A DNA stretch of 64,000 nucleotides, taken from assembly GCF_025526975.1 (NCBI RefSeq), contig NW_026515702.1, positions 248,001 to 312,000 of the forward strand, given 5' to 3'. Below, piece by piece: positions 11,041 to 63,683 of this stretch. The notes under the pieces are model-generated. The model was not told the origin of the DNA, did no database searches, and worked only from the letters and a program-made list of their open reading frames with translations. Source of the stretch: Fimicolochytrium jonesii. Lineage: Eukaryota. The translations under genes and the position numbers were made by a program. The stretch's first letter is position 1; each line of letters opens with the position of its first letter.

Positions 11041-11100
11041 TAAGGACAACCTTCTCCTCATCCATTGAACTCATGAACTACGTTCCTCGTCCAGAGCAGA
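11041..11100 (-). repeat. Dispersed remnant homologous to the 3' end of the DIRS-like YR ORF (43801-43860)
   Basis: actacgttcctcgtccagagcaga (11077-11100) is identical to 43837-43860, and similarity continues over about 60 nt. Confidence 0.7.
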
Positions 11101-12272: not shown

Positions 12273-14695
12273 TCAGATGCGCTCGAGTCGTTTGCCGATG
12301 CGTCTCCAGGCGGGGAATGTCGGTGCCCGTGGTCTTCTTGGTGCTCGTTTCCTTGGGGGTGCCGGTCCATGTTTCTCTCCTGTGGTGTCGTCCTTGTCAG
12401 TGTTGATCGTTGCCGTGTCGTCCGTGTCCTTGGTGTTGATTGTTGCCGTGTCGTCCTTGTCCTTGGTGTTGATCGTTGCCGAGTCGTCCGTGTCCTTGGT
12501 GTTGTTGATCGTTGCCGCGTCGTCCGTGTCCACCGTCACCATTCCTCCAAGTCCGTCCAAGTCGGGAATCCAATCCGGCAATCCCTCGTCGTTCAATCCG
12601 TCGTTGTCGAAGCTGTCGTCCAAGTCTGGAATCCAATCCGGCAATCCCTCGTCGTCCAATCCGTCGTTGTCGAAGTCGTCCAAATCCGCTTCCAACTCCC
12701 TCATCCTCCTCGTCATGCTTACCAACTCTTCGTCATCCTCTGAAACTCCAAGCGTCCTCTTCTTGTCGATCCTCGAGTACAGCACCATCGCCTCCTCCTC
12801 CTTTGGCAACTCCAGCGTTGGACGTTGCATCAGCCACCACTCCATGTCGATGTTCTCCACAAGTCCCCGTGTCCACAGCTTCAAAACTTGGTCCGTGCGA
12901 TTCGTCTCCCTTGGAATGTTCCGTTGTTGCTGGTCCTCAAGTTCGAAGTCCTCCAGTCCTGCCGTCAGCTTTACCGTCGTCACAAATCCAAAGCAAGCCG
13001 ACCCCTCCACCTCCTCCCTCGAATACCCCGTCGCAATCCGCATCAACTTGTCGTCCGCTCCCATGTACCCGCTTACCAAAGGGCATGAGACGAAGAACAC
13101 CGTAGCAGCTAGGAGGGACGGCCGGAATCGAAGCGAATCTTCCATGATGACGCAGGTAGCTAGAAGGCGGTTGGCGGTGTCCACGTTGGCGAGTCGTCGA
13201 AAGGTTGGCGTGATCCCAGTCCATGTAGCGAAGTTGATGATGTCGGCGTCCCGGATGTCGGATTTGACTTGGTTGGCGATGTGGAAAGCGTGGTTGAGAA
13301 ATTCCTGAGGGCTTGTTTGGTATCCGTTGCAGTCCATGAGTATTTGCTGGTCCACGATGTGTCGTTTGACTTCCTTGAGTAGCACTTGGAGCTCGGTGTT
13401 GGACAGCGCAATCCCGGTACGAAAGGTCTCGACCCGCTTGATGAATTGTTGGAGGGAGGGATCCACTTCTGATTCCATGCTGAAGGCGACGGCGAACAGT
13501 GCGATGGCGATAGTCTTCTCCGAGTAGATCGTGTGTTGCCCAGGAGTCGGTGTCATTGCCCTGAAATACAAATCGAGGTAAGTGACGGCAAGGTGATAGA
13601 CCAATTCAGGAGACAAATAGCACAGGGAAAACCCGGCGCTAAGGTCGTTGATTAGTGCTATCATCTTCGATCGGTTATCCTGCGTGAGTGCTCCATTTGT
13701 CCGGGAAGTCCATGTACGGTTGGCGTTTCGAATTTGGCGGTCCTCTCGTTCTACAATGGTCGTAAAGTGTCGCTTGAGATCTTCCAGTGTCCAGAGAAGG
13801 GCCTTGCTTCCAGTGTCGTCTTCAGGTTTCCGGGGTTGGGCGTTAAGGATGGCGTCCAGATCGAGAGTTTCTTCAAGGTCGTCCATGGTCGGGATCTAAT
13901 ATAGTAGAGGACGAGAAGGTATAGGATGAGTAAGCCAGTGTCCTACTATAGGTAGTAAGCGAGTATAGTGTGCATAGCGAGTGCCAGTAAGCGAGCACAA
14001 GGTCAACGACGACCGCCTATGGCAGTTATCCAGGGATGTGGCCTAGGCGATTGCGACGAATCTTGATATCGAGGGGAACGCGAGACGACCGCCTAAGGCA
14101 GTCGGGGGCACTTGGTGTTGATGACGCGTATTGACGAACGCCGACGCGTCTTGAGATCGATGTATGAGGACGACCGCCTATGGCAGTGTCGAGGAACCTT
14201 GATGTCGATGAAGCGCGGATCGAGACAACCGCCTAGGGCAGTGCAGGACACTTGGTGTTGATGACGCGCAAGAGACGAGCGCCGACGAATCTTGATATCG
14301 AAGGGAACGCGAGACGACCGCCTATGGCAGTGTCGAGGAACCTTGATGTCGATGAAGCGCGAACCGAATGAAGCACGAGACGACCGCCTAAGGCAGTGTC
14401 GGGAATCCTGGTATCGATGAAGCTGCGAGATCAGATCCGATGATCTTACCTTGGGAGCAAGTGTCGCGGGCTGGCGTTCAAGCTGGTCTTGGAGGATAGC
14501 GTCGTCGAGGAGATCGGCCCAGGGTTCTAAAAGGGAAGAAGTTTGGGGGGTAGTAGCATACGACATCATTTCGAGAGAGTTATTTTTTTGTGATTTATTA
14601 GTTTTACGAATGTTTTTTGGGTTTTGTACGCTTTCGTCTTTCTCTTCGCTTCTGAGGGCTTGGAGCAGAGCTTGTTGATCTCTTTCGCTTGTCAT
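12273..14695 (-). CDS. Divergent cyclin-fold protein with an acidic repetitive C-terminus; exon 1 14450-14695, exon 2 12273-13895
   Basis: NRSKMIALINDLSAGFSL...ELVYHLAVTYLDLYF aligns with the cyclin box MRAIL..W...ETLYLAVNYLDRF. TSPQEFL, LRFRPSLLAATVFF and TGYSREEV match Cyclin_C. The phase-0 intron AAG|gtaag...ttag|ATC joins the upstream exon in frame. Confidence 0.7.
12370..12680 (-). repeat. Coding tandem repeats (DTDDTATINTK-type ~33 bp x4-5; FDNDGLxDEGLPDWIPDLD x2)
   Basis: Visible in both the DNA and the translation of ORF 12273..13886. Confidence 0.9.
14025..14425. repeat. Degenerate tandem repeat array inside the cyclin-gene intron
   Basis: The motif gacgaccgccta(t/a/g)ggcag recurs about 6 times, with reiterated intervening blocks (ttgatgtcgatgaagcgcg, cgacgaatcttgatatcga). 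Confidence 0.85.
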
Positions 14696-24704: not shown

Positions 24705-24774
24705 CGAGGAGGAGGTGCTTAGTGCGGTGGGTAGTGAGGTGGGATACTAAGCAACCTCCTCCTCGTCTAGAGCA
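24705..24774. repeat. Inverted repeat whose right arm matches the DIRS-like YR terminus
   Basis: cgaggaggaggtgcttagt (24705-24723) pairs with actaagcaacctcctcctcg (24746-24765). The latter is identical to 43800-43819. Confidence 0.7.
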
Positions 24775-26170: not shown

Positions 26171-27534
26171 GGCCTTGTCTTCTCTACTTCGCTTCCGCCC
26201 CAGTCGTCGAGATCATAACAGCGCACCGCTAATAGATGCGCTCAGTCATACAGCCCAGTCAAAAAACGACAGAAAAACATCAAGACGCTGGCGCTACCAC
26301 CACCACCTTTCCAACTCCTGGTCTCGCATCTGACCGTCGCCAATGGCGGAGGACGGTCCATTCCGGTACTGGATCACCCGGCCAGTCAGACGGCTGAAGA
26401 ACTTCATCAGGCCACTGGATGGCGAAAACGAGGCGAACGTAGTTCCTGCCGTCGAGGCTGTTTTCCGCGCAAGGTCAACATTCATCACTGATACCGTCTT
26501 CAGTGCCTGGCATCTCCTCGCTATCTACCTCAGAAGCGAGGCCGACAATTGGTTATCCACCCCCAATGATGATCCCCTTGTTCCTCCGACAGGAGACGCT
26601 GCCGGGAATCACAGGATGCGGAAAGGACTGCATCAGATGATGCAGGACACCTTGAGAATCATTGCCACGGATGGTGACCGGGGCAGTGTTGATCCGGTAC
26701 TCCTGGAAACCTATACTACCAAACTCCAGCCAACCATGATGACCGGCTACCATTCCGACGAACAAGATGACCTCCCCAACAAACCTCCAAACAACGCGCA
26801 GTACCTCTTTACTCGGAAGATTCTTCGCACCGCAGCCAACACTCCCGCCGGGGAAGGGTGGACGGATTATCGGTCGCACTTCAAGCTTATTGCCAGGACA
26901 CTGCAAGCGAACTTCAAGGAACACATAGCCAAGAATCTCAGCGACATCATGGCACAGATTCTCTCAGCTCAAGTCTAATCTGTTGACGGAATCCATGGGG
27001 CGGATGCAGAGGAAGTTGGTACGTTGAGCCTTGCATGCCACGCATTCCACGTTTCCGGTTAGGTTCTGGCCACATCAACTCACAAATGTTTCTCCTCCAT
27101 GCAACAGTGAAACGGCTGCTGCGGTGGCTTGACCCAAGACTAGTCACCAGTCATGGTCGTTGGAACCTCTTTGAACAACAACAACAGGCCAGTGGACTGG
27201 GGGACGAGTTCCTGTTCGGCGGGCTGGATATCACCGACCAACAGCAGGACCACCTTACCACGATCGCATTGCAACATCGTCGAATTCTCGTCAATGCAAT
27301 GGGACCCTTCACTATCCCGGGGTGGTGGCAGGATGAAGACTCGGTCTGTTCGTATAAGGATCCAATCACAACATACCAATGAGCCAGAGTCCTTCAGCGA
27401 CTCCCTGGAACCGGTGTCGCGGGCCAGCAGAGCGATGAGAGGCGAATCATCCTGCGCATGACATACTACATGCAGTATCTTTCCAGAGAGGCCCGGAGGC
27501 TTGAATCGGAACTGGTCCGAAGAGAGGGGTGATG
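26171..27534 (+). pseudogene. Fanzor family A N-terminal (REC-lobe-like) fragment with one intron and nonsense codons
   Basis: 26171-26220 matches 28124-28171, which is fused to the Fanzor C-terminus in copy 2. The ORF starts at ATG 26343 (MAEDGPFRYWITRPVRRLKNFIRP...), has an intron at about 27018-27108 (G|gtacgt...cag|TG), and carries in-frame stops at 26976, 27380 and 27530. Confidence 0.65.
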
Positions 27535-29189
27535 TTATGGACGACGCGCCCATACCATAAGCTTACCTACTGACAGCCGCCAATGTCAACCGCCAAATGT
27601 CAAACGCCAATGTCAATGTCAATGTCAGTGTCAATGTCAGTGTCAATGTCAATGTCAATGCCACTCTCCCTCTCTCCTCTCATTTTGCCAATCCTCCAGC
27701 AATATCGCCACTCCTCCTCTCTCCTCTCATTTCACCGATCCCCCCTCGGCTTCTCCACACCCCCCACTACTTCCCCATAGCCAGCAGCTGTAGCAATGCT
27801 CTCTACGCTCGCCACGCACGCTCTAGGAGCATAGCTGGCGCCCGCCCAGTCTTCTCCACACCCCCCACTACTTCCCCATAGCCAGCAGCTGTAGCAATGC
27901 TCTCTACGCTCGCCACGCACGCTCTAGGAGCATAGCTGGCGCCCCCCCAGTCCCCTCTTGTTGTTGTTGTTCTCTGATCTGCTGGGTTGCCTATCTATAA
28001 ATAGCCGGCCTCTCTTCGTCCATTCCCTTCCTCCCCAGCAGATCAACACCAGTTCTTCTCATCTCCTGTTCTAGTCCTTGTTTCTTGTTTCGCCAATACA
28101 ATCTCTTGTCGCCTATCACTCTCGCCTTGTCTTCTCTACTTCGCTTCTGCCTCAGTCGTCGAGATCATAACACAATGCCATAATTCAATGGCAGGCTACA
28201 AGACCCTTGCCAGACAATTTCCAGAAGCCAATATCCACGACACTAGGGCCCCTCGGCAACCCTATGCCATGTGCAAACATCCCCCCAAGTACTGGTATCA
28301 TCGACACCGGGAGGCTCCTGCCAGGCATGGACCAAGACAATGGTGCGATCAAGAGGCAAATGAAGCGGAACCGATATTGTTTTCAAGGTGCCCTGAGTCC
28401 CGCAACGAGATGGGCGAAAACTGGAGACTTCGAGAGTGCCCGACATGCCAGATACCTCCTGATATTCCGCCCATCTTTGACAGAGACATTCAAGCTGCCG
28501 CCAACTTTCGGTTCCTGATTCATCAATATTCACGCCACAATGGTCATCGACCTTGATGGAATTGTCCGGGCTGGTTAGCTGATGCACAGTTGTGGTGAAG
28601 TTTTCTAGTCTCCAAGTCTCCTTAGATAGTTAGCATCACATATTTAGCTATTCCTTCCCACCCGCGATGGCACACGGGCCTGCGTGCATCGCAAGATATG
28701 CGACAATACTTCTTGTATGTTGTAAAAAGTTGGACGACATGCTCGTCAGCCAAAAGCTCATTTGTAAAAACCTAGAAATCTGGTCTTGGGACCTACCTCC
28801 GCCCTCGTCGTCCAGACTGTTGGGGAATGTATCCTTCACACAAAGGAAGCAAGAAAGCCAAGAGTACTTATCGTAATTGCCCTGTGCGTCTTGTCTCCTT
28901 GCAGCGTAGCAAAAGGCGCCACAGGCAACCATGTCGATTACACAGCTGGCGCTAAAACACGAAGACGGGGTAATTTGAGAAAGTACAAAACGAGATATCG
29001 CAATCAAATTACTCACAGTGTCCAACCATTACACCAGTCGACCTCACGCTGTGCCAGGCCAACTGAGCCGACGCAAGCGATGGACTTTTCGCCAACGGGA
29101 GCCGCAAGGTCGTGCGGAGCTGCAAGGGCGGTCGAAGCGAAGGCACTCAAAAGCGCCACGGCTGAGACAGTAGAAGACGCGAACTTCAT
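27535..29189 (-). CDS. Small secreted Cys-rich protein, 3 exons; intron 2 carries Fanzor copy 2
   Basis: Exon 1 29017-29189 (signal peptide MKFASSTVSAVALLSAFASTALA); exon 2 28797-28951 (ASCVIDMVACGAFC...SCFLC); inferred exon 3 27535-27566 (GKLMVWARRP*). Exon 3 is inference. Confidence 0.55.
27591..27660. repeat. (TGTCAA/TGTCAG)n hexamer microsatellite near the element left end
   Basis: Direct reading of the sequence. Confidence 0.9.
27750..27951. repeat. 101-bp tandem duplication
   Basis: cttctccacacccccc...catagctggcgccc starts at 27750 and again at 27851. Confidence 0.95.
27975..28045 (+). promoter_or_regulatory. Putative Fanzor promoter: TATA box within a 12-bp inverted repeat
   Basis: TATAAATA at 27996-28003 lies between tgatctgctggg (27975-27986) and cccagcagatca (28034-28045), followed by a pyrimidine-rich leader. 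Confidence 0.5.
28599..28745 (+). ncRNA. Candidate omegaRNA scaffold plus guide, copy 2
   Basis: Near-identical to 7037-7155 (one 7-nt local duplication) and divergent immediately after TGTAA. Confidence 0.55.
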
Positions 29190-41556: not shown

Positions 41557-41748
41557 GCCGCTTTGCCTTTGGCAATCCGTGCCTACCGGAAAGGACCAAA
41601 GCCATGCAAAACGGAAGGAAAGCCGACCATCCTCCAGACTCTTCTTGGGCGTATCTTAGGTTCAAAGTTGTTTAGGAACTTTACTGATGTACTGTACTGT
41701 ACTGTATGACACGGCGTACGCATGTACCTACAGTACTATGTATCATTA

Positions 41749-41841
41749 CAAGTTGCCATCATCGGCGACGCCTCAGGCAGAGGTACAATGATGTGGATGG
41801 CAGATAACCACCACGGAAAATGGGATGGGGTGAAATCTAGA
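41749..41841 (-). ncRNA. Candidate omegaRNA scaffold of Fanzor family B
   Basis: Lies immediately after the stop codon. Stem tgccatc/gatggca (41754-41760 with 41796-41802) encloses cctc/gagg. Ends CTTG|TAA like family A. Single copy, so the boundary is inferred. Confidence 0.45.
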
Positions 41842-43761
41842 CTACCGGTTACGGGAGAATGCGTCTGGTCTGCGGCCATTGCCAAACACCACCGAGCGCA
41901 CAATCGAGAGGAAATTCTTGGTGCTTAGGACGTCCCGATTGTGCACTTTCATCCGTAGTGGTTGTCTCCCAGGAATCTCAAATGGCGTCCAGTCTTGGTT
42001 GATACATTCGGGGTTGGGGCAACCCACCAATCCATGGACGAATTCCATTCTTCCCTGTCTAGCTTGCCATGGCCGAGATGACAGCCGGCGTCGGACGTTT
42101 TTCTTCACACGGCCGTGGCAGTCGGGGCACACGGACGACGTTCGATACTCATCTAGCAAGTAGCATGGAATGCTGTTTCTTGCAAAGAGTGTGCGGAATC
42201 TGATTTCCATGATGAGTTGGCATATTGTAATACATATTACCAGTGATAGTCACCCACCCTTTGGTCTTTGATGACTCCTGAAAGCGCATGGTCTTTCCAG
42301 CGTCGCTCCAATCACCCAAGATGACCGCAAAATGCTTTCCATACAGGCGTCGCATGTTCTGATGAGCTTGCTCTCAGACTTTTCCCGCAGTGAGAACGCC
42401 TTGAATCTGCGAGCTACGCGAATCTCATCCTAGTAAAACTCGTCCAGGGCGAGATCTGGGATATGTATGTCAGCCCATGTATTACCAAAGTTGAAAATCA
42501 AAGTCGAAATAGAACATCATACCCGCATGTTCGTAATCCACGATGAACGCTGAGAACGCTTCGATGTTCATGCTCTTGTGTGACGGAATATGTGATTCCA
42601 TCTCAGCGATGCCGGCATTGATCTTTCGCTCTGTCATGTCTCTTCGAAAGTACCGAGACCTTGTCTCGACGGCCCGTTGATTGGATGTGTATCTGATATG
42701 GGGTGGTGCATTGTGAGGACGCTGCAACGGAATGTCGAACAAAGGGGATGGTGGGGATGGTGACGGGGGGGGATGGTGGGGACGGGGACGGGGACAGGGT
42801 TGGGGAGGGCGTTGATGGGGATAGCGGGGATGGCGCGGATGGCAGAGGTACTGCAGATCGAATTCAGTCGCCGTCGCCATGCATTGCTCCGCATTCTGAT
42901 CTCATTGAACGTTCCGCCAACTTCCGCGATCGCTTGAGTCCAGCTTGGAGTAGGAGCCGGGCTCGCGATTCGCTCTTCACGACTACGACGGCAAAGCAAC
43001 AACACATCCAATGCCGGTCGACCTCCGCAAGCGGCGGTCGTGCTCAGCACCGGAAGCGTTGACATCAGCGATGGCGGAAGTTGATAGCATAAAGTTGATG
43101 GCGTAACCAATAGCGGCAACAGCGGGGACAGCGGGGACAGCGGGGACAGCGGGGACAGCGGGGACAGCGGGGACAGCGGGGACAGCGGGGACAGCGGGGA
43201 CAGCGGGGAGGGACAGTGGGGACAGCAGGGCAGTGGTAATCAACTGAAACGTACCTAAATGGCCGCTCCTTCTTGATGTCTCGACAGAACAAGAGGTCAC
43301 GCTTGCCCGGATCAATGCTGACGATGTTTGGAGCCTCCCGTAGTTCGGCGATGTGGTGCTCAAGATACAGCTGCTTGACTTCTTCCCGCATTTGGGCCTT
43401 GCTGCGCTTCCAGGCCCAATGCCCATACTTGAACCCTGGCTTCTTGAAGTGGATGGTAGCGGAATACCCGTTTGTGCTGATTGGTCCATCAAATTTAAGA
43501 CCAAGCTTCTTTCGATGCTGAAGACTTTGTCCTGCAGTCCGTCATTCAGCGAGGTGATTGAAATAGGTGCAAAAGGATACAGACTTAACTTACATTCACA
43601 TTGAGAAACTGCCCCCACAGCTCCCGCTTGCGTTCATCGGTGAATTTCCCCATGCGACGTTGGCTCAAACCCAGGAAATGAATGGCTAGGATCAGCGTGT
43701 TGATCCGAACAGATGACTGGATTTGAGATTTGTGCAGCGGGATAGCAGAAAACAGCCGCAG
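41842..43761 (-). pseudogene. Fanzor1 family B nuclease gene (C-terminal ~60%) with four spliceosomal introns; 5'-truncated and disrupted
   Basis: LRLFSAIPL...VRINTLIL...LWGQFLNVN|DKVF..KFDGPISTNGYS...IVSIDPGKRDLLFC (RuvC-I)...FR|YTSNQRAVETR...|...VILGDWS...KTKG|FRTLF...LLDEYRTSSVCPDC (RuvC-II + Zn)...VHGLVGC.NPEC...HNRDVLSTKNF (RuvC-III)...RPDAFSR*. Introns at 43532-43593, 42693-43254, 42456-42522 and 42200-42257; TAG at 42430-42432; two frameshifts. Confidence 0.9.
43119..43209. repeat. (ACAGCGGGG)n 9-bp minisatellite, about 10 copies, in Fanzor B intron 2
   Basis: Direct reading of the sequence. Confidence 0.95.
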
Positions 43762-43800
43762 GGTTATTTATTCACTCGAGGAGAAAAATAGAGAAGCTTA

Positions 43801-44929
43801 CTAAGCAACCTCCTCCTCGTCCATACACTCTAGAGGACTACGTTCCTCGTCCAGAGCAGAATGGACTCCGTTCGGAGGTTGCTTATTTGTCGATAAAGCC
43901 GTATTTGCCGCCATATCGCGTAGGAATTCGTCGTAGGTGCGCTCATTATCGGAGGAGGACGCCTCGGCGTAAATATCGTCGATGCCGATGGTGTAATGCG
44001 TTTGGAAAACCCTGGAATTGGGTACCCAACGCCCCTTCTTGATCGTTTCCTCGCTGAGTCCACTGCGAGTTTGCGCGGTCGTGACGGCGTGGGTGATGGA
44101 TTTCGGGGTAAATTCGTCGTCGATGCCGGCGGCTCTGAGGACGGCGTTGACGAGGTGGCTGATGCTTCCGGCTGCCATTGGCGAGTTGTGCTGTCGGTTG
44201 ATGAAAACCTCCTGGATGCCATCGCGGCGAGTACCCTGGATGGCGATGAGGGCGTCGTAGAGCTCAGCTACGTCGAGATTTGGCGTGTGTTTGATGCGGG
44301 GGTCGTTGATAACGCGGTAGTTGCCCTGTTCGAATAGTGTTGTCGTGTGCGTGATTTGGGCGCCATTCCTTGGGTCGGCAGGAGCGCAATTTGAGGGAAT
44401 GTTCCGTGACGGTGGTGCGCGCATGGATGAGGGTCGCAAGGTGATTGGGGCGACACTTCATGGTGAGCATAATGACGACGGCGAGTTGCGAAGAAAGCCA
44501 TTCGAGCGTGGCTAGTCGTGGTCGGCGGGCGATGTGTCTCCATAGCGTTGCTGGATCCCAAATGGTTTTGTACGCCTTTTCCGTGGGCTTGATCGAGCGT
44601 GCAAGGCCTTTGAAGAATCGTTGTATATCGGGCGCGGTGCTAATGAGCGCGTCGTCGCCGGTAATGTGTTGCAGTGTATTCGCGATCGCCGTGCGGTAAC
44701 CTTGCAGTGTTCGGATGGCGAGCCGCTTCTCGGAATGAACGTCGGTGATGAAGTTTAGAACCATTGAATGGCCGGCGCGAACGGGATCAATGTCCCGTTG
44801 TGGGCACCAGCGTACGTAGGTCCGCCAGACCGAGTTGTGATTGACGTTGTTTGAGAGAGACCGGAGGGTGATGTTGATAGCCGCCTGCGATAGGCCTCGT
44901 TGTGCGCTGTAATACCGGATAACCGCCAT
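43801..44929 (-). pseudogene. Tyrosine recombinase (YR) of the DIRS-like element, frameshifted near 44340
   Basis: SAM-like N-terminus (VWRTYVRWC...DP...VLNF...TLQGYRTAI), FFKG...P...WDP, catalytic R (MKCR), GRW...FQTHY (catalytic Tyr). The reading frame extends upstream over the RNase H ORF, as in DIRS elements. Confidence 0.85.
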
Positions 44930-45909
44930 GCGATTGTGAGGGTCCACGGTGGTTCGCGAAGGGGGAGGCCGCTCTGAGCTTGAAACACTTTCGGCTTGGA
45001 CGGAATGGGGATCAGGTCGGCAATCGAGAGTCGCAAGAGGAGCGGGAATGCTGCGTGCAACGGCCAGAACGGTGTTATCAGGGTCAGGTCGTGGAATTCC
45101 TCGTCGATGATCTTGCGCGTGATGCCCGATATCAGCAGCCATGGGGGGTTGGCATAGCATACGTGATGAGACCAGGATATCTACAAAGCATCGACGGCGA
45201 ATGCTTGGGGATCCCCCGAGTCCAGCGTGCAGTAGTGTGGAATGCGGGGATTGCGGTTTGTGCCCGTCGCAAACAGCTCCATTGTGTGATTCACCTTCCA
45301 CCGGCCCTGAATCTGCCGGAGAATGCGCGGGTTGAGCTGGTAGTCGTTTCGATCGTTCTGCTGGCGGGAGTCCAGGTCCGCTATCACGTTCTCCTTCCCG
45401 GCAATGTGGAGGGCCTGCCATGTCTTGTTCTGATGCCGGTAGCGTAGGAGAAGGTGCTCGATCACCTGCGAGAGGTGATCTGCGCGTCCGCCACCTTTGT
45501 TGAAGTAGAACATTGTCGGCGTGTTGTCGGTCATGTGGATGACGTGCGCGTTGGAGAAGCCGAATCCATGACGCTTGCAGAGGAGGTCGACGGTGCGGAC
45601 TTGAGCTATGGCCTCGAGAACGTTGTTGGAGACGAGACGGTCGAGCTTCTGACGCCGAATTGCCTGTTGAAGAACGGCGAATGGGAACTCGGGGAAGTAC
45701 CGTTGAACCAGCTCCGGCGTCCACCGTTCCTGGACGCGAATCAGCTGGCCCGTCTGGGGATGTTGACAATTCCCGCCCCACCCGTGGTTGGGGGATGCGT
45801 CGGCGAATATGCGGTAGTCTGCGTCCTTGGTGAGTAGACTCTTCCCGTTCCATGCGGTGAGGTTGTTTGCAAATTTGCGAAGGAGGGTGCGGGTCGGTGT
45901 CGGAATCAC
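44755..45909 (-). pseudogene. DIRS-type RNase H plus DNA N6-adenine methyltransferase-like domain
   Basis: IFADAS..GWGG, NNVLEAIA, TDNT....YFNKGGG, HIAGKENVIADLDSR (RNase H); then ELFAT..N, DAL*ISW...YANPPW, LITPFWP, AWRLSG (DIRS MT domain). In-frame TAG at 45181-45183. Confidence 0.85.
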
Positions 45910-48636
45910 GCAGAATGCGCGGTGTGGTGGTGGCCGGCAGAAGCGAGGGTCTGTCGAATACAGGTTTACGGTTGGGTGTCCGGAAAAATAAGCTGCCGGT
46001 CTCTCAATAGCACAAGAAGAGATCTCAAGCGAGAGCGTCGTCTTGCCACCTTAATATCCAGGTGCTTTGAAAGGAGTCCTTCTTGTAATACGGGGGTCGG
46101 GTCTTACGGGTACGGGTACGAGATACGAAATCGGGAATATCTGCGTGGTTGACTACAAAACAAAACAACGGGGTTATCCAACCTCACCCTCAGCTCTTCT
46201 TACAAGATTCCTGAGCTATCAAGTCCTCGGCGACGTCAGCAAAGTAAAAGTCGCGACACTCGGGGTCATCTTGTCTAAGCTCTCTGGGTCTATGACCGCG
46301 CCTTGAAAGTCTATCAGAAACGGGAAGAAGTCGTCGGGAGTAGAGAAGTAGAAAGCTCTGTTGTTGATCGGGATCTGTGTTCTGCGTGCACGGATCTGGG
46401 TTTTGCGTATCGTACAAAGGTCTGGGGAAAACAGACGGGTTTTTATATGGATTTTTCTAGGCTACGAGATTTTGTCGAAGTCCAAACTCTCTACTAGTCG
46501 TCTCTAGAGGATTTAGCTACGTCGGGGTCTTTTTCTCTTTTCCTGCGGCGGTCTACGTAGTTTTTCCTTTTTCCATTCGCAATTTTGGCGCTGATACAGC
46601 CTTATCGCTTTCTTTTCTCGGGGTTTTCTGCAACTTTCGGCGTGAGTTTCTTTTGTCCACTCCTACGAACGCGGGGAAATCTACTACATCTCCGTCCGCT
46701 CCGCTTACTCGGCGCGGCGAGCGCGTCGAGCGCGTTAAAGTCGGTACGCAAGTCGTCCGCGACAGTGCCGTACATACGGCATCAAACTGCGGGCCCAAGA
46801 AGTAACACGTTTTGTCTCGTCGGTGATGACAGAGGAGTTCCACGTTTTGTCTCGACGGTGATGACGCCAAAGCGTCCCGAACCTGCGATGCAGGATTCCG
46901 GCTCAGGACATGGCACTCATTTTCTCTTCAGATAGATATGACGCAAATCGCAAAGGCGGCGCCGAACCCCAACCATGCACTTTGAACCCATCCGATGTCC
47001 GCGGCCCCGCAGTCAGTTGGATATCATTGAAGAGCAGCGGGTGCACGGTGATCTGCTAGTGTACAGTACTGCTTTGGATCCTCGGGCCCGCGCTCAAGGG
47101 AGCGATCGTTTTAGGCTGTGAAAACAATCATCTTCGGCAAATGTTCATCTTCCAATGGTTTGCACGGTAGCAACACGGGCATGACACACCCACAGGAACC
47201 GCGCATCTGAAGATAAGCTTTCGCGAACTTTTCGAAGTGTTCTCTGGACTATTATTCATGCAACACCTTGCCGGACTAGCACGTGCATGGCGACTCGGCG
47301 GAGACCAGACTGGTGGATCATTCACTCATTTAACATCATGACCCCTGAATCCACGCAGAGATATGAATCCTGTCTTCCGACAGTTGGAATTGCGAAGCTT
47401 TGCTTTATCATTGATCAAGTTTGGACACTAGTATGTATGATGATTCTAGCGTGTCGCAGTACGTAACACCGGCGTCGGAGTCTCCGGGCATATTGTACGG
47501 TTTTGCAGGGGTAGCGCAGTCAGTGCACCAGCGCGTGTTGGATGGACACGGACTTGCTCGCAGGGACGATTTGCTGATACCAGGGTTCCTGACTGCGCGT
47601 GTTAAACCCTCGCAACTTCAAGTTCGCAACTCATCAGTGACCCGTAACTTTACGTGTCAGAACTGCGCTACGTTGATGATTAGCGAAAGTGGATCTGCTA
47701 TAACGTCATTCGGGGGTGCACCTAGCTCTATGGTACTCGAGAAAAATTATTCTTAGACCTCCCGGCGAGTAATTAGAGAGACACCATAAGGTATGTACGA
47801 GTGACGATAAATATGGACGGTGCTGTGAAGGAGTCTTTGCTCAAGAAACTCACGGGTAGTAGGTGCACAGAAACGGGGCTTTGGAAAATGTTGGAACGAG
47901 AGTGGACCGGTTTATTTATGACGACTATGATATTTTGGTCAACAGTGGATTCCGAGTATGGCTGTGATCGGTGATCACCCCTGGAAGCAGATCTGCATGT
48001 CGTTTTCCCGGGAAAGACATTCCAAGATTCAATGAACTCCGACCAACTTTGACACGGAAACTGATGTCTTCACGCACGAGGGAATTTCACAACCGGCCGA
48101 CGTTGAACTTTAAGGGCAATTACAGAATCCGAACCATGCAATTGTGATTGTAAACACGTGGAGAGACGGAGACGGATAGAGGAGCGCACCCCGTCCCCCA
48201 GGGCCGCAGATGTGTCTACCGCATATCCTTCCGTGTTACGGCGGGATGTGCTGTTCCCGCCCAAACTGTGTTCATCGATGTCTTCTATGGTATACTTCTG
48301 GATGCGTTCTCGGTGATTTCGAGTAAATGTGGAAAGATCTATCTCAATTTGGAACGTGAAATCCCGAAATGTAAATGCGATGCAGAATGCGGAGGTATAA
48401 ATATCACCCTGGAGATAGACAACCGGCGTGGAGAAAAAGTAAGGACTGGCTTCCCTGGTGCCTCGGATCGCTGACCTTGGGACAAAGTCGTGAAAACTGA
48501 ATTCGAGCGACGGCCATATCGATATTCGGGAAATTCTGAACTTCTCCGCTTGGTCCCTTCTGTCGGCGGCGTCACCTTCACATCAAGCGACCTTGATATT
48601 GCAAGTTGTCTCAAGGTATCGGACTTTCCTGTGACC

Positions 48637-50286
48637 ATGAATTTCAAATCTGTTCTGCTGCCAACACTGCAGGCCAATGCGGTGATTGCCTTGACTACTC
48701 TGTCTGGGGTTGCCCTTGGTCGATTGGGATTTCTGACACCTCCCATTCAGAAGGTAGGTCCGAATCAGTGTGGAGTATCTTGACTACGGTTGTTTGTGGA
48801 CATGTCTAACATGTTCTTACTTAAGAGCCTGGCCAAGATCAGCTACTGGCTTCTGACACCCGCGCTCATTTTCAGCAAGATCGCAAGTACGGTCGACGTC
48901 GATCAATTCGTCAGCTTATGGCCGATCCCAGCCCTCTTCCTTTTCAGCTCGGTTGTTTCGTACTTCCTTGCCATCATTGGTGTGCGTTTCCTCCGCGGAG
49001 ACATACAGAGCAACCGATTCATGATCGCTGCAATTGTCTTCACCAACACGGTGACCATGCCCGTGCCGGTCATTATCGCGTTGACGCCGATGACACCAAT
49101 TCTATTTCGGCACGCCGGGTCCGCAGGAGAGGCTGTTGCGAATGGTATCTCTATGGCCTTATTCTTCACGGTTTTCTCTCACATCTTTCGCTGGAGCATC
49201 GGATACAAGCTCTTGGACGCCCCCGCTATGAATGAGCTTACCAAGGAACAGGCCGGCAAAGGTTCCCTCACCGCTGATGGTCACGAATTAGATTCTTCCG
49301 CCGTCACCATCGAAATGCCTCCGTCCATCGTGAACGTCCGCAGTTCAAACGTCGCACGCACCACACAGCACGCCCCCGCTGTACCCGTCAAAGCCGAATG
49401 CAGACCGCCGGGGATCTACGCGGCGGTATCATCCCTTTCGTTGCAGGCCGTCGCTGCTCGTCGATTAGCATCGTTGCACTCATCGGGCGGGCTTCCCCGA
49501 GTCTACGATATGAAGGGAAATACGGTTCGTCGGGCTAGCATTGGAACGTATTTTCCTGAATACGTGGGAAAGGACCAACATGTGGAATTGAAACCTATGG
49601 CGCATGAACATCGACGAATTTTGCAAGGAGAGGAATGCGCTCCAAACCGGTGGAGCGATCGCTCAAGCAACGTAACGGCTGCAACGCCGGGCTCGGAATG
49701 CATTGCCTGTGACGATAGTGCCGCCGGAAAAGAACATACTTACTTCGACCGAGTTCGGAGTGTCATAACGAGTATCATCAATCCACCTTTCGCGTCAGCT
49801 CTAGTATCGCTCTGCATTGGGCTTATCCCGACCCTTTCTTCCGTCTTCTTCACGGGTCCTGTACGCTTTGTCGGAATCTCTCTCACGTCAATAGGGGATG
49901 CCTCCATCCCGTTCCAATTGATTCAGCTTGGTGGTCGGCTTCAGCGAGGTCCAACCCGCGACCACACGACAACCATGCCCGCCTGTGCAATAGCATATGT
50001 GGCCTTCTGCCGCCAAGTGATGGGTCCTTGCATAGGTCTCGCATTCTTGGCTCTGCTTAAGACCGCTGGGTACACCCCGAAGGATCCAATGCTAGCGTTT
50101 GTGCTGCTTCTTGAAGCCAGCACCCCGCCAGCTCTCAACCTAGGCGTGATTGCAGAGCTTCACGGCAAAGGTGAACGAGACATGGCCAATCTCCTTTTCT
50201 GGACATACATCGTGGCCATACCGGGCGCCGCGTTTTCGGTCGTCAGTTTCCTGCTTTTGCTTCCAAACTTTGTATCTCCGCGCTGA
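48637..50286 (+). CDS. Auxin efflux carrier/PILS-like membrane transporter (Mem_trans family), 2 exons (48637-48753, 48826-50286)
   Basis: LLTPALIFSKIA, FTNTVTMP, RWSIGY, NPPF.SAL, GDASIPFQLIQLGGRL, DPML.FVLLL...TPPALNL; about 10 TM segments with a central loop. Confidence 0.9.
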
Positions 50287-52920: not shown

Positions 52921-53792
52921 TACACGGTCATTGTAATGGTCTTCTTTCATGGCATGGTTCATGAAATACATGGCAAATGTATAGTGGTCGTCTTTCCTGT
53001 CAATCAATACATTAGAGATGATGAGGAGTGCAAGGAGGATGACACACAGACACGGCAACTAATAGTGCGACCGGGGCCGGCTGGGCCGGGACCGCATGCG
53101 ATCGCGCTAGATGGAACCGGGATGGGGCCCCTGCCGCACTCACTAAGCCTGTTGTCCGACGCACTGCCAACGGTTTGGAGCGTTAAGGGGAAGTCGAGCT
53201 TATCGGCCATGGCGTTGGAATGCGATGGCGAACGCAATGGTGTGGGGCGGGGTGCTGTGCGTCAAAGGAGAAGAAGCCGGGTGGGCCTTGACCAAGTTCG
53301 GACGGTGGGCAACGTGGCTTCAATGCTCCGGATGCCTCCAGTCGAGTTTGTTGCAATCACTCATTCAGAGAACGTTCTTGTATTTGCATGGGTCCACGAC
53401 GGCGTGCTGCTTGGGCGTACTGTAAGCTGCTTACGGGAGTCGCGCGTTACTGCCCAAAAGTTCGAATCGAAGCGTCTCCTGGGCATTGGAAACATTATGC
53501 TACTCGACCCCATATACTGTGGAGACAAACACAAAAGGGTTCGCCGCTTCGTCATCCGATGTTCCTGGGTAGGCGGCTGACAATAGAATTCCGCGGGATG
53601 CACGGTCCATACATTTCTTTTCCATCGTTACACTGCCATAACAACGTATTTAAACCGCAGCAATGCGGCCTTTTCCTTCGCCATCCGTTCTTGTACATGA
53701 GCGTGCATTCGCATGTACCAATCGTAGTTGCACAACTTCCCCCAACAGTTGCGCATCCCCCGATCTTTGGCGGGATTCGATAACGCCGAAAG

Positions 53793-56700
53793 ATGTGCCT
53801 GAACTCGCTGCGAACCGTTCCAGATCGACAACCTATTGACGCCGAAAGCAACCCCATGCTCACGACCATCGCCTTCCCTTCCTCTCTTTCGACGAGGAGC
53901 ACAGAGGCTGACATCCCACCGTTCGTCGAGATACCGACTGCTCCTCAAAGTTTTGAAAGGCGACCGAATATCGCAAGGATTGGCTCCGGAGACGTCAGAT
54001 CTATGCCACCAGCCGAATGTCACTTGAGTCGGTTAACCGAGCCTTTCCACTCGCAAATCGAAAATGGATTTATGGTCCGTAGGCAGAGCGGAGGACCAAC
54101 GCGGCCGTACAGCTTGACAATGCTTGGAAATGTGAGACATCCCGGACGACCTTGGATGCGTTATCCTTCCGATGCTCCGGTAGTTGTCGGCGGAGTCAAG
54201 TGCAAAACCTGTTCCGGCCGAGTTGCAAGAGCACCGGGCTTTCGGAAGCTATTGCCCGAGGATGCCAAAGAGAATAGTCATTTGTGGATGTGGTCAGCGC
54301 GGATTCTGACTTGTTGCTGCTTGCCATTTTGTTTGAGAGCCATGGGCAACAGGGATCGGATTGTTCAGCAGGCCTGGCGCGAGAAGATTGCCCTCTGCCT
54401 CATTATTCTCATCTTATCTGTGGTGGTCGCTTTCTTTACCGTCAGTTTGCGGAGAGTGCTCTGCCCTAGTACCACTTTCGCAAATCTTTTGCCAATATTC
54501 GATGCCCAAAGTCACAACGACAATCACGGAGATTTAAACGGCATTCTGATCAGCGGCTATAGGTATAGCTTTGATGAGGTGCAGCGAGAGCTTGCTCAGC
54601 ACAGTATCCACATGGGGGACGAATGGAGGGGCAAGGATATCACAAAGCTTTTTGCAAATGACCGGCAGAAGTGCGATGCATACGTTGTCGTCCCCTATAC
54701 TGACGGTTGTGATTTTCCGGAGCTGGTCTCCATATCGCGTCCCCGGGGGAAATGTGGAACAAGGAGCTGGTTGAGAAGAATGAGTAGTCGAAGGGCCAGG
54801 CGATACATGGAATGGACAGACCTCGCTATTATTTCTCAACAATCACCAACACTGAGTTTCACGGTATTCAACGGAGGTGAGCACACTCATATTTCCGCAC
54901 TGTACACGCATATTTTTGGTTTCTGGACTGTGAACTGAAACTCCTTTCTCTTTACAGCTGTCGTGAATGTCACCGAGTTCTTAAGCTCAGCACATCCTCA
55001 CACGGAGGCCTATAGCTTCATCTTCAACGGCGTTGGGAAGGATGGGACACACCTTTACCTTCGCAACAGTAACGCGCATCGTGCGATCAAGTGTCTTCTC
55101 AAGCCTTACCATGTCGGATACATTGATGTGGAACCCATCGGTTGCATCGCTGGTCAAGTTCTTGAAACGTTGACGCTGGTGATCATTGGCGGGGTTATGA
55201 GCACCAAATTCTTCATGGCTCTTTGGTTCCATTGGTTCGGTTTGCCCAAACTGGAGCCGACCCAATTCGGACTTCCAAAGGGCAGCGGGAGTTGCGCTGT
55301 CGCTGTGAACGATGACAGCCCCATCGTTAGGTCTTGCATGTTTGACGAGAGCCATACCATGCATGCCATTATCTTGGTGACATGTTATTCGGAAGGCTAC
55401 GATGGACTACGGACAACATTGGACTCGTTAGCTAGTACGGACTATCCAGACAGTAAGAAACTGCTGTTTGTGGTCGCAGATGGAATGGTAACTGGCCTGG
55501 GCGAGGAGAAATCTACGCCGGCAATCATCTTGGGAATGATGCAGTTCGACCCCGGCATGACCGAACCGGAGCCAAAAAGTTACGTCGCCGTCGGGCATGG
55601 CGGAACAGAGCACAATATGGCCAAAGTTGTAAGTCTTCCGAATGATTGTTCTAAATGGCAAATGAGTATTCATCTTACCTTTCTTCCTCTCTTTCATGTA
55701 GTATGCGGGTTACTACATTGTTGGAAACCATAAAGTTCCCATGATTACGGTCGTCAAATGCGGTCTCCCGTCGGAAGCAACCTCGGTTAAGCCTGGGAAC
55801 CGTGGAAAACGTGACTCCCAGATGATAGTTCTGAACCTACTGAGTCGCATTTTGTTTGACGACCGGATGACGGCACTTGATTTTGAAGTCCTTACGGCTA
55901 TGGACAATATTGCAAGCGCCGCGGACAAGTACGAAGTTATACTCATGGTGGACGCTGACACCAAAGTTGCTCCCGAATCCCTAAAGTACATGGTGAACGT
56001 GATGAGAACCGATCAGGCGGTAATGGGTCTCTGCGGGGAGACTCGTATCGCGAACAAAACGGCTAGTTTCACGTCGGCTATACAAGTTTTCGAATACTAC
56101 ATCTCTCACCATCTCGGGAAGGCCTTCGAGTCGGCGTTCGGCGGCGTCACTTGCCTTCCTGGATGCTTCTGCATGTACCGGCTAAAAGGGCTTGGGAGAG
56201 ATAACGGAAGTATTGTGCCCATTCTTCTCAGTCCGGACGTTCTGGAAGAATACTCTGAGAGTGTTGTTGAGACGCTCCACAAAAAGAACCTGCTCCTCCT
56301 TGGGGAGGATCGGTTCTTAACCACTCTGATGTTGAAAAACTTCCCCAGGCGGAAGACGATCTTTGTGCCGCGGGCCGTTTGCTACACGATAGTGCCGGAT
56401 CGGTTCAAAGTTCTGCTCAGTCAGAGGAGAAGGTGGATCAATAGCACATTGCACAATTTGCTCGAGCTGGTTTTGGTGAGGGATCTCTGTGGAACGTTTT
56501 GCTTCAGTATGCAGTTCGTCATATTGGTAAGTGAAAGTTTTTTTCACTCACGGGAGCGGCGGGATTTGCAACCGCTGATACCATTTCTACATTCACTATC
56601 GTGTAGCTCGAATTGATCGGAGCCGTAGCCTTGCCCACTTCTATGTTTTTGTCGATCTATCTGATCTTATCTGTTTCCATCAACAACAACGCCGAACTGA

Positions 56701-57195
56701 TGCCTTTCCTCATACTGGCGGCCATGCTGGGTCTCCCTGGCCTCCTCATTATCGTCACCACTCGGAAAAGGGCTTACGTTCTATGGATGCTTCTGTATTT
56801 GTTTTCTCTACCCATCTGGAACTTTGTGTTTCCAATCTACGCCTACTGGCATTGTGAGTATCATCGCGCCCTTCTGAATTGGCTGGTATCATCGGCCATT
56901 TTTGCTATGTTACGATGCAAGACTGATTGTCTTCCTAATTTTCCTAATAGTCGACGACTTTTCATGGGGTAAGACGCGAAGAGTTGAGGAGAAGGTTCGG
57001 GAAAGAGCAGAAGGGGAAATGGAGAGTCAGACAAAGGCGCTCCCTGTGATCATGAAAAAGTATGTCTTGGTGCTATATTTTACAGGCTTCTATATTAAGC
57101 TCACATTCTCCACGTCATAAAGATGGATCGAATGGGTAGTGAGCAGCGAATGCGAGACCATCCGGGAATCTCCAGAACTAGGCGCTGTCTGGTAA
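53793..57195 (+). CDS. Chitin synthase (division 2, class IV-like), multi-exon; both ends approximate
   Basis: AWREKIALC, a cytochrome b5-like segment, [75 protein letters not shown]. Confidence 0.95.
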
Positions 57196-58827: not shown

Positions 58828-60662
58828 ATGCCCGCAAGCATTTTTGTCAACGTTCTTGTGCCAACGCTACAGGCCAACGCCGAGATCTTCATCACAACGC
58901 TCAGCGGGGCCCTGCTAGGAAGAATTGGAGTCTTGACATCCGACCTGCAAAAGGTAGATGCCGTCCGCTGGTCAGACTAAGGCTTTGAAAGCGGCCGTCG
59001 TGCAGAATTCCGGAGTTATGACTTATGCGAATTTTTTCTTTTCCCGAAGGGCCTGGCAAAAGTCAGCTTTTGGCTTCTCACCCCAGCTCTCATATTTTCT
59101 AAGATTGCCTCGACTGTAGACTCTCAGCGGTTTATCTCGTAAGTTCGTCTTCCCGCACTCGGACTACATGTTCATTCCTTCGTTCGGGTTAACTCATTGG
59201 GCATCCCCACATCAGACTATGGCCCATTCCCGCCCTCTTTGTCTTCAGCTCCCTCATTTCCTACGCACTGTCGTTGATCGGATGCCGATTTCTGCGCGTC
59301 AGTCTTCAGAACCAACGTTTCATCACGGCGGCAATCGTATTTACCAACACGTACGTAAGAACGGATCCGCATGGCGCAATTTGGCATGCCTTCGACACTC
59401 ACTCGTTGTCACTTTCACCATTTCAGCGTTACAATCCCGGTGCCGATCATCACCGCCTTGACACCATTTACGCCGCTCCTTGTTCTCGCAGGCCAGACTC
59501 CGGCGGACGCCATCTCGAGCGGCGTCAGCATGGCCTTATTTTTCACACTCTTTTCCCACGTGTTTCGCTGGAGCATTGGCTATCGTTTACTGGATGCTCC
59601 CGCAGAGAAGGCCATGCAAAAGTTGAAGGACGATCCGGAGATGAATTCCACTCTCGAAGGTCAAGAACTCAAACCTCGAGGTGTCGATCGGAACGAAATC
59701 GAACTTTACAAGAAAGGGTTTGACGTTGTTCCGGAAGCTGACATACAGGCGACGAGCCAGCTCGCGCGTGCGAGCTTGACGGGGAGGTATCCCGAGAACC
59801 TCCCATTCCTCACCAACCACTCCGATGAGTCGCCTGCGTCTGTGCCCGGCGGCAACTCGCTGGGTCGCCCACTGCCCATTCATCCGCCGGTGGCACGGCG
59901 CATTTCGGACGCATGGACGGGGAGTCGTCGAGGGTCAGCTGATGACATCGAAAGCGTTGCGTTGATAAACAGGGAAGAGATGAAAAAAGCCGACGAACAA
60001 AGCAGCGCTCCGCCGGAGTCAACGGAACCGGCGGCCGCACCAGGACCGGGGTCCATATTCAAAAAGATTGTATTGAAATTCTGCGATTTCATGAACCCAC
60101 CCTTCCTCTCGGCTCTTGTCGCATTGTTTATTGGATTCCACCCATCGGTAAGTATGCCACCTTCAAGTGTTTCCGTCACGGCTACTAATGTTTTCTACGC
60201 AATTCGTTTTCGCAGTTGCAAACTTTTTTCTTCAAGAAGGCAGGCTCTTCGATTGGTGCTAGCCTAACGTCCGTCGGTGAGACGTCCATCCCTTTCCAAC
60301 TGATCCAGCTCGGCGGACGCCTGCAACGCGGCCCAACTAGAGATTCCACGACGACTATGCCGAACAGGGCGATCGCGTTTGTTGTATTCTGCCGCTTGGT
60401 TCTCGGCCCACTGATCGGACTCGCATTCGTTGGCCTGCTCACGATCGCCAAGATTGCGCCAAAAGACCCAATGCTCATTTTCGTCCTCCTCATGGAGTCT
60501 AGTACTCCACCCGCTTTGAACCTTGCCGTCATCGCCGAGCTCCACGGCATGGGAGAAAAAGATATTGCAAACCTCCTGTTCTGGAACTACGCTATCGCAA
60601 TACCCGGCGCGGTGCTCACGGTGCTGCTTTATCTGGTCCTCATCCCATCGTTTGTACGATGA
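58828..60662 (+). CDS. Second auxin efflux carrier/PILS-like transporter, 5 exons
   Basis: Paralog of 48637-50286 with the same motifs (LLTPALIFSKIA, RWSIGY, NPPF, IPFQLIQLGGRLQRGPTRD, TPPALNL); four GT-AG introns. Confidence 0.9.
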
Positions 60663-61251: not shown

Positions 61252-62523
61252 ATGGAATCCGATCCCGAAGTTACCGCAGTCGTCACTGTCGCCGCTCCTA
61301 CCTTCGTTTCGCACTTAACCGGCACCAGTCTTGACGTCGGAGATAAAGCGCTGAAGAAAGTCAGGGTCGTTAAGAAGGCCCCTGCTGGTCGAGCGGGTGT
61401 CCTGACCCGGGCGGCCGCGTCGTCGAGTACTGACCCCTCCGCACTTGATATCGACGAAGAAGAGGAGTCTTTGGGCTCGTCCTACAAGGTCGTTATCGCG
61501 TCCGAACCCGCCAAAAAGGCTCACCAAGTAAAGATCATTCTCACGAGGGGCAAGTCTACAACAAAAAGCTCTGCGCCAGCTGCAACGGTTGCCTCTGTTC
61601 CGGCCAAGGTCACTTCTCAAGCCGAGAATCACGCGCAAGACGTTGTTAAGAGTCCTCCCTTGCGGACCGTTCCCACGGCTGCGTCTGTGCTCACCTCGCG
61701 CCCAGCTTCGGCCGGGGCTCACCAGAATCTTCCATCCCACGTTCAGACCCACCATCCTTTATTGCACGGCGTTGCCCAAGACCAAATTTGACCTCCGTAT
61801 TGGCTTCCGTATGGGTTTTCGCACGGGTACCATTTCGGTCCGCCGGCTCCTTATCTCAGTTCCCAAGGTCCATCCGCTTCCGGCGCTTCGCAATTCGGTC
61901 AAAGTTTGTTCGTCCCGCAACCTGGTCAAGATCCTTTGTTGTTTGGAAGCCACGATCCACGCTTCGTACAACATCCTGGTCCGCAGCCGCTAACGCCCAG
62001 AACTAGTCCTTACCTTTCCCAAGATTCCTAGGTCCCTCCTGCACCTTTCCATTACAAACCGCCGGGTAGTTCCCCACAACAACACGCTCAGCCTCAAGGC
62101 CATTTTCAACCTCCGGCTCCGCATCCGGCCGCTTTCCAGTATCTCGGGGAGTACACGCAAGGTCAACCCGCGGTCTCCCTGGCTGCTCCTGCCGCTGGAC
62201 CATATGGTTACGGTGTGGCTCCGGGCGTTCTTCAACAACTCCAAGCTGCCGCGGTCATTTTCGGGGTTCAACCTATCTCGCTCCACTCCCCGTCGTCGCT
62301 TACATCTCACGATCCCATCATTGCTGATACCTTGCGAAGCCGTGCTGAATACTCCCAGAACCTCAAGACTACCCGAGAGATACTTATCGCTAACGGAGCC
62401 TCGTTTGACTCGGGCACGTTGGAAGCAGTCATACGGCTTCAATACGTTGATCTCGCCAAATTGCATCCATATCGACACGTCCAACCATCCGAAACAACGA
62501 TTACCCTCGCTCCTTCCGAGACC
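61252..62523 (+). pseudogene. Gag-like ORF of a probable YR retroelement (DIRS/Ngaro), truncated by telomeric repeats
   Basis: A single intronless frame from ATG 61252 with two stops (TGA 61789, TAG 62029). It is low-complexity P/A/S-rich, then LEAVIRLQYVDLAKL, resembling the I-x-x-x-x-YVD-(L/F)-x-x-L motif of DIRS/Ngaro gag. TATA at ~61116. Confidence 0.45.
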
Positions 62524-62648
62524 TTAGGGTTAGGGTTAGGGTTAGGATTAGGGTTAGGGTTAGGGTTAGGGGTTAGGGTTAGGGGTTAGGGTTAGGGTTA
62601 GGGTTAGGTTAGGGTTAGGGGTTAGGGTTAGGGTTAGGGTTAGGGTTA
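62524..62648 (+). repeat. Interstitial telomeric tract (TTAGGG)n, about 20 units with variants
   Basis: Direct reading; variants TTAGGA, TTAGGGG and TTAGG. Confidence 0.98.
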
Positions 62649-63683
62649 CAAGACCCCCTGGGTTGGGTTTTATTATTGGGTTGCCTGGAACCCTAGGGAC
62701 TTAGAAATTTTCGAGTTTTTTGGCTTTTGGGTGTGTTCTACAGTTCGAATTTTTGACTCTGAGGGGTGTAGTGGCCGGGGGTGTTGCGCACCTAGGCAAG
62801 TCGGGGAGGACTAGGTGTGCAAGGGCAAGTGATGGGTCATATGGGCGGTGGTGCGGGTACGGGGGGGGCAGGGGTGCCAATAGGGGGGGGGGGGTTGATA
62901 TAAAGGGGACATATATGTTATATATACGTTATAGGACTTGTGCAAATTGGGATTTTTTTAGTGCCGATCCGGAGTTGGCGTCCTAATTGAAAAGTTGGCC
63001 CCATATCATATTCTCTAATTGAAGTACTCTCGGATTGGCAATCCGTGCGGAAACGGCTTCAGAAACTTAGAAAAACGAAATTTTCACGCGACGGGGGGTA
63101 AAAAGTTGGAAAATGTGGTGATATCTCAACATCTGGCTGACTATCCAGTGTTGGGCACTTAATGAAAGTTGATTGTAGCCTATGGTTTGCATAGCTGATG
63201 TGGTAGCAAATCTTGTGTAACCTCGCTTTTGGCTGAAGAACAGGGCCCCTTTTCAATTCTCAAATCGTGACCCCCAAGACCTCCTAACGAAAGACGCGAG
63301 TACGTATGTGCAGGCAAAGGGGTTTGGCCGTGTTCTCCAGTAAACATTTTGTGATTCCGCTGTGCATCGTAGACTGTTTGTAGGACCCTTGCGGTATGTT
63401 ATTTACCAAAACTGTTGAACATTTTCCGGTTAAAGCAGTGTTCTACAGTTTGTCCATGCAGGTTAGAGGCACGTGACCTGGGCCTGCTTGCAGGGTACGC
63501 AGAGTGAGAGGGTTGGGGTTAGAGATTTCCCAGATCACTTATTAAATTCAGCCAAACTGTCTCTGTCATGGAACATTTAAAATGGTGGAAAGTAGTATTG
63601 CATTTATTGATTTAGAGTACATTGGAAAAGCGCACATTCAGAAAAGGGTTTTGGTGTAAAGTTATCAACGACATTCAACAGTA

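Follow-up and report, generated by a model that had tools for sequence, protein, structure and literature searches.

A decayed Fanzor1 copy with four predicted introns, related to SpuFz1, in Fimicolochytrium jonesii

Background

Does a Fanzor1-like coding sequence split by four putative introns still belong to a working RNA-guided nuclease gene, and where did its introns come from? We consider this question for a locus in a 64,000-nucleotide stretch of Fimicolochytrium jonesii DNA (contig NW_026515702.1), hereafter the window, whose coordinates are used throughout. The DNA is fungal, and the window includes chitin-synthase-like open reading frames and a TTAGGG array. It is highly probable that the locus preserves one copy of a multi-copy Fanzor1 element of the SpuFz1 clade, decayed and truncated at its 5' end, a reading that takes in every step of the mechanism proposed in the Conclusions.

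Results and Discussion

Gene structure and relation to SpuFz1

When the exons between positions 43760 and 41842 of the minus strand are joined by coordinate (Table 1), they give a Fanzor-like frame that is broken by one TAG and two 1-nucleotide frameshifts. The four introns of 62, 562, 67 and 58 nucleotides that had been proposed can be read directly on the minus strand, both in their lengths and in their GT and AG ends, and they are predicted to be introns from homology. With the introns removed, the predicted product would align with SpuFz1 uninterrupted across each of the four sites, which is a stronger argument than the junctions in gene models described below. The RuvC-I motif SIDPGKRDLL (aspartate codon 43313-43311), the RuvC-II motif LDEYRTSSVCPDC (glutamate codon 42150-42148) and the RuvC-III motif HNRDVLS (aspartate codon 41934-41932) align with SpuFz1 residues D383, E541 and D606, respectively. 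This alignment bears out both the assignment to Fanzor1 and the claim that all three RuvC acidic residues persist in this copy, which also has the zinc-finger cysteine motifs CPDC and CPNPEC.

Table 1. Features of the Fanzor1 locus and its flanks, in window coordinates
Feature	Position	Strand	Basis or remark
5'-truncated first surviving exon	43594..43760	-	start is the codon of P0079 residue 368, about SpuFz1 residue 258
Intron 1, 62 nt, phase 0	43532..43593	-	GT..AG; sequence reading and paralogue junctions
Exon with part of WED and the RuvC-I aspartate (43313-43311)	43255..43531	-	1-nt deletion near 43519
Intron 2, 562 nt, phase 2, with internal 9-nt tandem repeat	42693..43254	-	GT..AG; paralogue junctions
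Exon, RuvC helical insert	42523..42692	-	sequence reading
Intron 3, 67 nt, phase 1	42456..42522	-	GT..AG; paralogue junctions
Exon with premature TAG (42432-42430) and 1-nt deletion near 42360	42258..42455	-	sequence reading
Intron 4, 58 nt, phase 2	42200..42257	-	GT..AG; paralogue junctions
Last exon: RuvC-II glutamate, zinc finger, RuvC-III aspartate, stop	41842..42199	-	sequence reading and SpuFz1 alignment
Predicted omegaRNA scaffold, 75 nt	41747..41821	-	inferred; by-eye match to SpuFz1 omegaRNA
Predicted 15-nt guide from flanking DNA	41732..41746	-	inferred from SpuFz1
DIRS-type tyrosine-recombinase retroelement remnant: RNase H, methyltransferase-like, recombinase	43761..46050	-	far boundary not fixed

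Of 57 candidate proteins searched with the last exon, 13 matched. All carry the name Fimicolochytrium jonesii, and nine are 90-96% identical across the whole query. Two more look-ups brought the family to 62 F. jonesii-named models on many contigs, a count of gene models rather than loci, since some loci are split across models. Judged from these models, the locus belongs to a multi-copy, dispersed element family. Two of the models, P0043 and P0107, represent the window locus itself, and the other 60 served as the test set for the junctions. The exact junction patterns expected for introns 1 to 4 are present in 19, 29, 39 and 44 of these 60 models, whereas in 41, 31, 19 and 16 of them the site is uncovered or the pattern is unmatched. 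No model has an insertion at junctions 1, 2 or 4, and intron 3 is read through in P0003 and P0083. The paralogue models are joined at the four sites originally claimed, although these junctions are gene-model predictions that may share the bias of a single predictor. Two mis-predicted models (P0016 and P0100) translate parts of intron 2 and a third (P0014) reads into the start of intron 4, so the paralogues carry these introns too. One paralogue, P0079 (KAI8821362.1), is a full-length model of 761 amino acids with all four junctions and the three catalytic residues.

The family is closely related to SpuFz1/Spu-1 from Spizellomyces punctatus (PDB 8GKH, 9CEU-9CEZ; Bao & Jurka 2013, PMC3627910; Saito 2023, PMC10432273; Xu 2024, PMC11423790). 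P0079 is 46% identical to SpuFz1 over 606 aligned residues and keeps D383, E541 and D606 as well as the zinc-binding cysteines C548, C551, C586 and C591, while P0008 matches the SpuFz1 structure 8gkh with an E-value of 3.5e-139. The fold is settled by this sequence identity to the solved structure, and the WED-REC-RuvC-NUC architecture is found at the level of the family, through the P0079 alignment and the P0008 match. P0008, P0012, P0079 and SpuFz1 itself all went unrecognised in a profile search of a local Pfam copy.

The F. jonesii family resembles SpuFz1 in its D-E-D triad, its zinc finger, its many copies per genome, the TA that follows the right end, and the predicted length and register of the scaffold; likewise, no transposase was seen in the family models. 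However, SpuFz1 is a single open reading frame in a 2.1-kb element, according to PMC3627910 and PMC10432273, whereas the F. jonesii gene has at least four introns and a proline-rich N-terminal extension of ~130 amino acids. Among the residues with which SpuFz1 contacts the TAM, Q129, Q130, R291 and Y345 are kept in P0079, but R96 is replaced by G and N133 by A. N385 of SpuFz1 is also a G in P0079. The window copy further differs from SpuFz1 in being truncated and mutated.

Previous annotation

The expectation that annotation would miss this locus proved wrong. It is covered by two deposited 'uncharacterized' models, one of which, P0107 (KAI8816658.1), is identical to the spliced exons 4 and 5 and is listed as a Fanzor HMM hit by Yoon et al. 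2023 (PMC10711439, Table S2). The other, P0043, matches the window at 100% identity in its recombinase part, and its Fanzor part carries the substitutions particular to this copy and ends at the TAG. The supplementary file of PMC10711439 contains the species name 33 times, including the paralogue KAI8816250.1, and has neither P0079 (KAI8821362.1) nor P0008. That study provides a hit list only, and the word 'intron' is absent from its main text. The species name does not occur in the readable supplements of PMC10530073 and PMC10432273, and among the matches listed in a full-text search for the genus name none concerns Fanzors by title or abstract. We found no description of the gene structure of the F. 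jonesii family in the literature on Fanzor introns, for which our coverage was mostly open-access. The kind of gene is thus known and the copy partly catalogued, and the gene structure, scaffold register and intron map given here are small additions.

Truncation and decay of the window copy

The original prediction held the copy to be inactivated by one stop codon and two frameshifts. These lesions are real: a single TAG (42432-42430) and two 1-nucleotide frameshifts are read directly in the sequence, and the copy is inactive. However, half of the gene is missing as well. The window copy spans residues 368-760 of the 761-residue P0079, and no match to the N-terminal ~370 amino acids was found anywhere in the 64-kb window. 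The exons do join into a Fanzor1-like protein as claimed, but that protein is incomplete and comprises only the C-terminal ~390 amino acids. Because the N-terminal half is absent from the 64 kb, most of the REC lobe is missing from this copy, including four of the six positions at which SpuFz1 is listed as contacting the TAM. With this loss, the TAG and the two frameshifts, the copy has no intact full-length reading frame.

The three pieces delimited by the frameshifts are 83%, 88% and 92% identical to P0079. Both deletions, near 43519 and 42360, lie in a TCAG context where the paralogues have F-K and I-K, respectively, and, as judged from the paralogue proteins, each reflects the loss of one A that changed TCAAG to TCAG. 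Systematic sequencing error may be the source of both. The deletion near 43519 creates an alternative splice acceptor at 43518, which the deposited model uses, staying in frame.

In the DNA of this one copy, examined for the terminal inverted repeats of about 30 bp and the TA target duplication of a Spu-1-like element, a TA follows the right end; the window yielded neither a left end nor a ghost copy of the SpuFz1-clade family. The N-terminal ~370 residues were probably lost by an insertion or deletion that involved the adjacent DIRS-type element.

Right end and predicted omegaRNA

The element appears to end at its right side with CTTG (41752-41749), followed by the TA on which the predicted scaffold ends. 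The boundaries of the omegaRNA (41821-41747) are predicted from a comparison with the SpuFz1 scaffold, whose sequence was taken from PMC11423790 Table S3 and whose numbering follows PMC10432273; the pairing register of SpuFz1 is our own reading of the sequence by eye. The tails were also compared by eye, as MAFFT misaligned the window tail in an alignment of four tails. In an ungapped comparison beginning at 41821, 14 of the first 19 nucleotides are identical to the SpuFz1 scaffold, and scaffold position 75 coincides with the second base of the TA that follows CTTG. The first stem-loop of 7-8 base pairs is retained with changed pairs. Of the six basal pairs of stem 2, four are kept (35-75, 36-74, 37-73 and 38-72), of which 37-73 and 38-72 are altered on both sides, and two (39-71 and 40-70) are broken. 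A rough post-hoc estimate of the chance of this match is 7e-5. This match in register makes the previously proposed CTTG-TA right end likely. In contrast, the description of the tail as hairpin-rich does not hold, since its folding energy is ordinary relative to shuffled sequences (z -1.05 for 41841-41749 and z -1.33 for 41821-41747). Nucleotides 76-80 of the flank pair perfectly with nucleotides 30-34, which would fit a true right end about 6 nucleotides further out, and the end could lie there. Two related loci, L002 and L003, have TTCC, a hairpin and a later TTG-TA, and their ends are equally unfixed.

Since the predicted scaffold landmarks are intact in the window copy and P0079 offers a full-length paralogue in which all three catalytic residues are present, the locus might be dead as a protein gene and yet supply a 'ghost'-like omegaRNA to the nuclease of intact paralogues. 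In S. punctatus, ghost omegaRNAs that lack a gene of their own do function (PMC10432273). We nevertheless regard such a donor role as unlikely: the element's own promoter region is gone from this copy, the first five bases of the guide are predicted to pair back on the linker, and the guide has no second match in the 64-kb window with up to 3 mismatches allowed.

Intron history in the SpuFz1 clade

Intron capture by Fanzors in general has been published, the reported densities reaching about 9.6 introns per kb (PMC10530073; Jiang et al. 2023), and multi-exon CRe elements have been described (PMC3627910). The premise that intron gain is a known adaptation of Fanzors agrees with PMC10530073. In the Chlamydomonas elements CRe-1/2/3 and CrFNuc, Fanzor1 coding sequence is split by spliceosomal introns, as it would be here (PMC10530073, PMC3627910). 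However, those elements are algal and Helitron2-associated, whereas the F. jonesii introns sit in a close relative of an intronless solved enzyme, and their gain can therefore be placed on a short branch.

To map introns we used relatives of SpuFz1 from a metagenome scan. With P0008 alone the scan returned no relative among 91 pattern matches, and an alignment-based scan gave 36 loci. Seven distinct loci were mapped in SpuFz1 coordinates (L001, L002, L003, L005, L006, L007 and L012). The map leaves out L004, which gives no boundary because it duplicates L003 over its entire length, two short fragments (L013 and L036), and 26 distant loci of 21-34% identity. Two viral loci from the search for relatives were entered in the ORF table only. 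The mapped relatives L001, L002, L003, L005, L007 and L012 are soil-metagenome loci with introns of their own elsewhere.

None of the seven mapped loci has an intron at any of the window's four sites (SpuFz1 about 310, 401, 458 and 524). The nearest cases are an intron of L012 that lies 6 nucleotides from site 4, and a break in L007 near site 3 that is a frameshift with no intron-sized gap. An intron at SpuFz1 ~164 is present in five of the seven loci, on three branches, and is absent from L006 and SpuFz1. Another at 585 is present in three of the seven, and L005 has one at about 534. As none of the four introns occurs in the seven relatives, several of which have others, and SpuFz1 has none, introns appear to have turned over within the clade. 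In a tree of 30 rows (a quick search with SH-aLRT support only and a midpoint root), the F. jonesii family groups with the Gaertneriomyces protein KAJ3177236.1 (99), and then with P0032 (96). This outgroup protein crosses all four sites without insertion. The simplest reading would be that the four introns were gained on the Fimicolochytrium branch or on a branch shared with Gaertneriomyces. The distribution of the intron at ~164, with moderate support, suggests its loss in the group formed by L006 and SpuFz1.

From that pattern, intron loss does seem to happen in the clade, and the four introns could then be ancestral and have been lost from SpuFz1 and others rather than gained. We think this very unlikely, because the four positions are empty in all seven related loci and in SpuFz1, the nearest outgroup P0032 spans them uninterrupted, and many parallel losses would be needed. 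Gain on or near the Fimicolochytrium branch is the reading that we retain.

The adjacent DIRS-type remnant

A DIRS-type remnant lies directly upstream and abuts the Fanzor truncation point at 43761. Its methyltransferase-like frame is presumed from its motifs. The match of its recombinase to Pfam (E 4e-4) is below the curated cut-off, and its RNase H region matches a protein with reverse transcriptase and recombinase (E 3e-6). The domain order corresponds to the order of DIRS elements, which is RT-RNase H-methyltransferase-tyrosine recombinase (PMC3783388). Neither an intact reverse transcriptase nor the terminal repeats of a DIRS-type element were found in the window. Further DIRS-type fragments are present at 11047-11100 and 24745-24767, and in two copies a short inverted repeat comes after the stop codon of the recombinase. 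These remnants occur in a chytrid of the Spizellomycetales; a 2013 survey found no DIRS elements in the two chytrid genomes that it examined (PMC3783388).

P0043 fuses the recombinase with Fanzor exons, and the gap between them is only about 40 nucleotides, which could suggest a single mobile unit composed of the DIRS-type element and the Fanzor half, or a gene in which recombinase and Fanzor are fused. This notion is hardly credible and we reject it: P0043 is the window locus itself and the only such fusion seen, it alone among the 62 family models matches the recombinase of the window, the Fanzor part of the locus carries the stop and two frameshifts, and the recombinase pieces in three other F. 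jonesii proteins come without any Fanzor sequence (proteins of 295-942 amino acids searched). Because these other recombinase fragments are free of Fanzor, the fusion in P0043 most probably reflects an error of annotation across a junction that arose only once.

A second Fanzor-like family and other genes of the window

A second Fanzor-like family is represented on the plus strand by copies at 6449-7155 (frame 6449-7036) and 28170-28725, which are 94% identical, and possibly by an N-terminal part at 26334-26978. Both copies are identical through TTG-TAA and then diverge, which fixes the right end of this family; the SpuFz1-clade copy ends in a similar way. No match was obtained between the second family and the SpuFz1-clade profile (hhalign probability 0.35%). 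Its language-model neighbours are Cas12f1/TNB-domain clusters (0.95), and RuvC-like motifs can be made out by eye in a full-length but distant relative. Neither a solved relative nor a close named one was found by sequence. The claim of two distinct Fanzor lineages in one window is consistent with this strong divergence, both being TnpB-derived. Several Fanzor families per chytrid genome are already known, with three in S. punctatus (PMC3627910 Table 1).

The second-family copies adjoin a repeat (26172-26220 and 28124-28172). The paralogue model P0052 breaks into sequence like this repeat (match at 26176-26220), which suggests that a second-family element may have inserted into a member of the SpuFz1-clade family elsewhere in the genome.

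Elsewhere in the window, a chitin-synthase-like gene (53784-57000) is flanked by paralogous multi-pass transporter-like genes (48784-50286 and 59359-60662), which we take to be auxin-efflux-carrier-like. A 540-amino-acid frame on the minus strand (12273-13895) with a repetitive tail matches the cyclin C-terminal profile weakly (E 3e-4, short of the curated cut-off). The telomere-type TTAGGG array (62512-62657) is internal, with about 1.3 kb of other sequence beyond it.

Conclusions

We propose that splicing of the gene, where a copy is intact, would yield the message for a RuvC nuclease of ~760 amino acids. The nuclease would bind an omegaRNA of ~90 nucleotides from the right end of the element, made up of the 75-nucleotide scaffold that ends on TA and a guide of ~15 nucleotides from the flank, and is predicted to cleave DNA beside a motif likely to end in TA, in the manner of SpuFz1. 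Probably the element is non-autonomous, targets TA and is moved in trans, and the four introns are likely to have been acquired in the lineage that gave rise to the F. jonesii family. The window copy, with its N-terminal ~370 residues missing in addition to the stop and frameshifts, would be unable to make the nuclease.

A broader set of proposals is tentative and, taken jointly, rather doubtful. Introns may turn over rapidly in the SpuFz1 clade, with at least four gained on the Fimicolochytrium branch, others on sister branches, and SpuFz1 secondarily intronless. Intact P0079 with the 75-nucleotide scaffold might work as an active Fanzor1 whose target motif differs from CATA. Finally, one TA-targeting transposase might mobilise both the P0079 family and the second family, with its TTG-TA end, in trans.

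The window copy is a dead member of an uncharacterised family of a known kind. It is itself a relic, the family is of modest use, and nothing here alters the established picture of Fanzors. The P0079 family is related to the best-studied Fanzor1 and combines a full-length model and a predicted scaffold with substitutions at TAM-contacting residues, which makes it a candidate for a genome-editing screen. It would also offer a short-branch case in which a gene that came from bacteria gained and lost introns, for which the published claim is only general.
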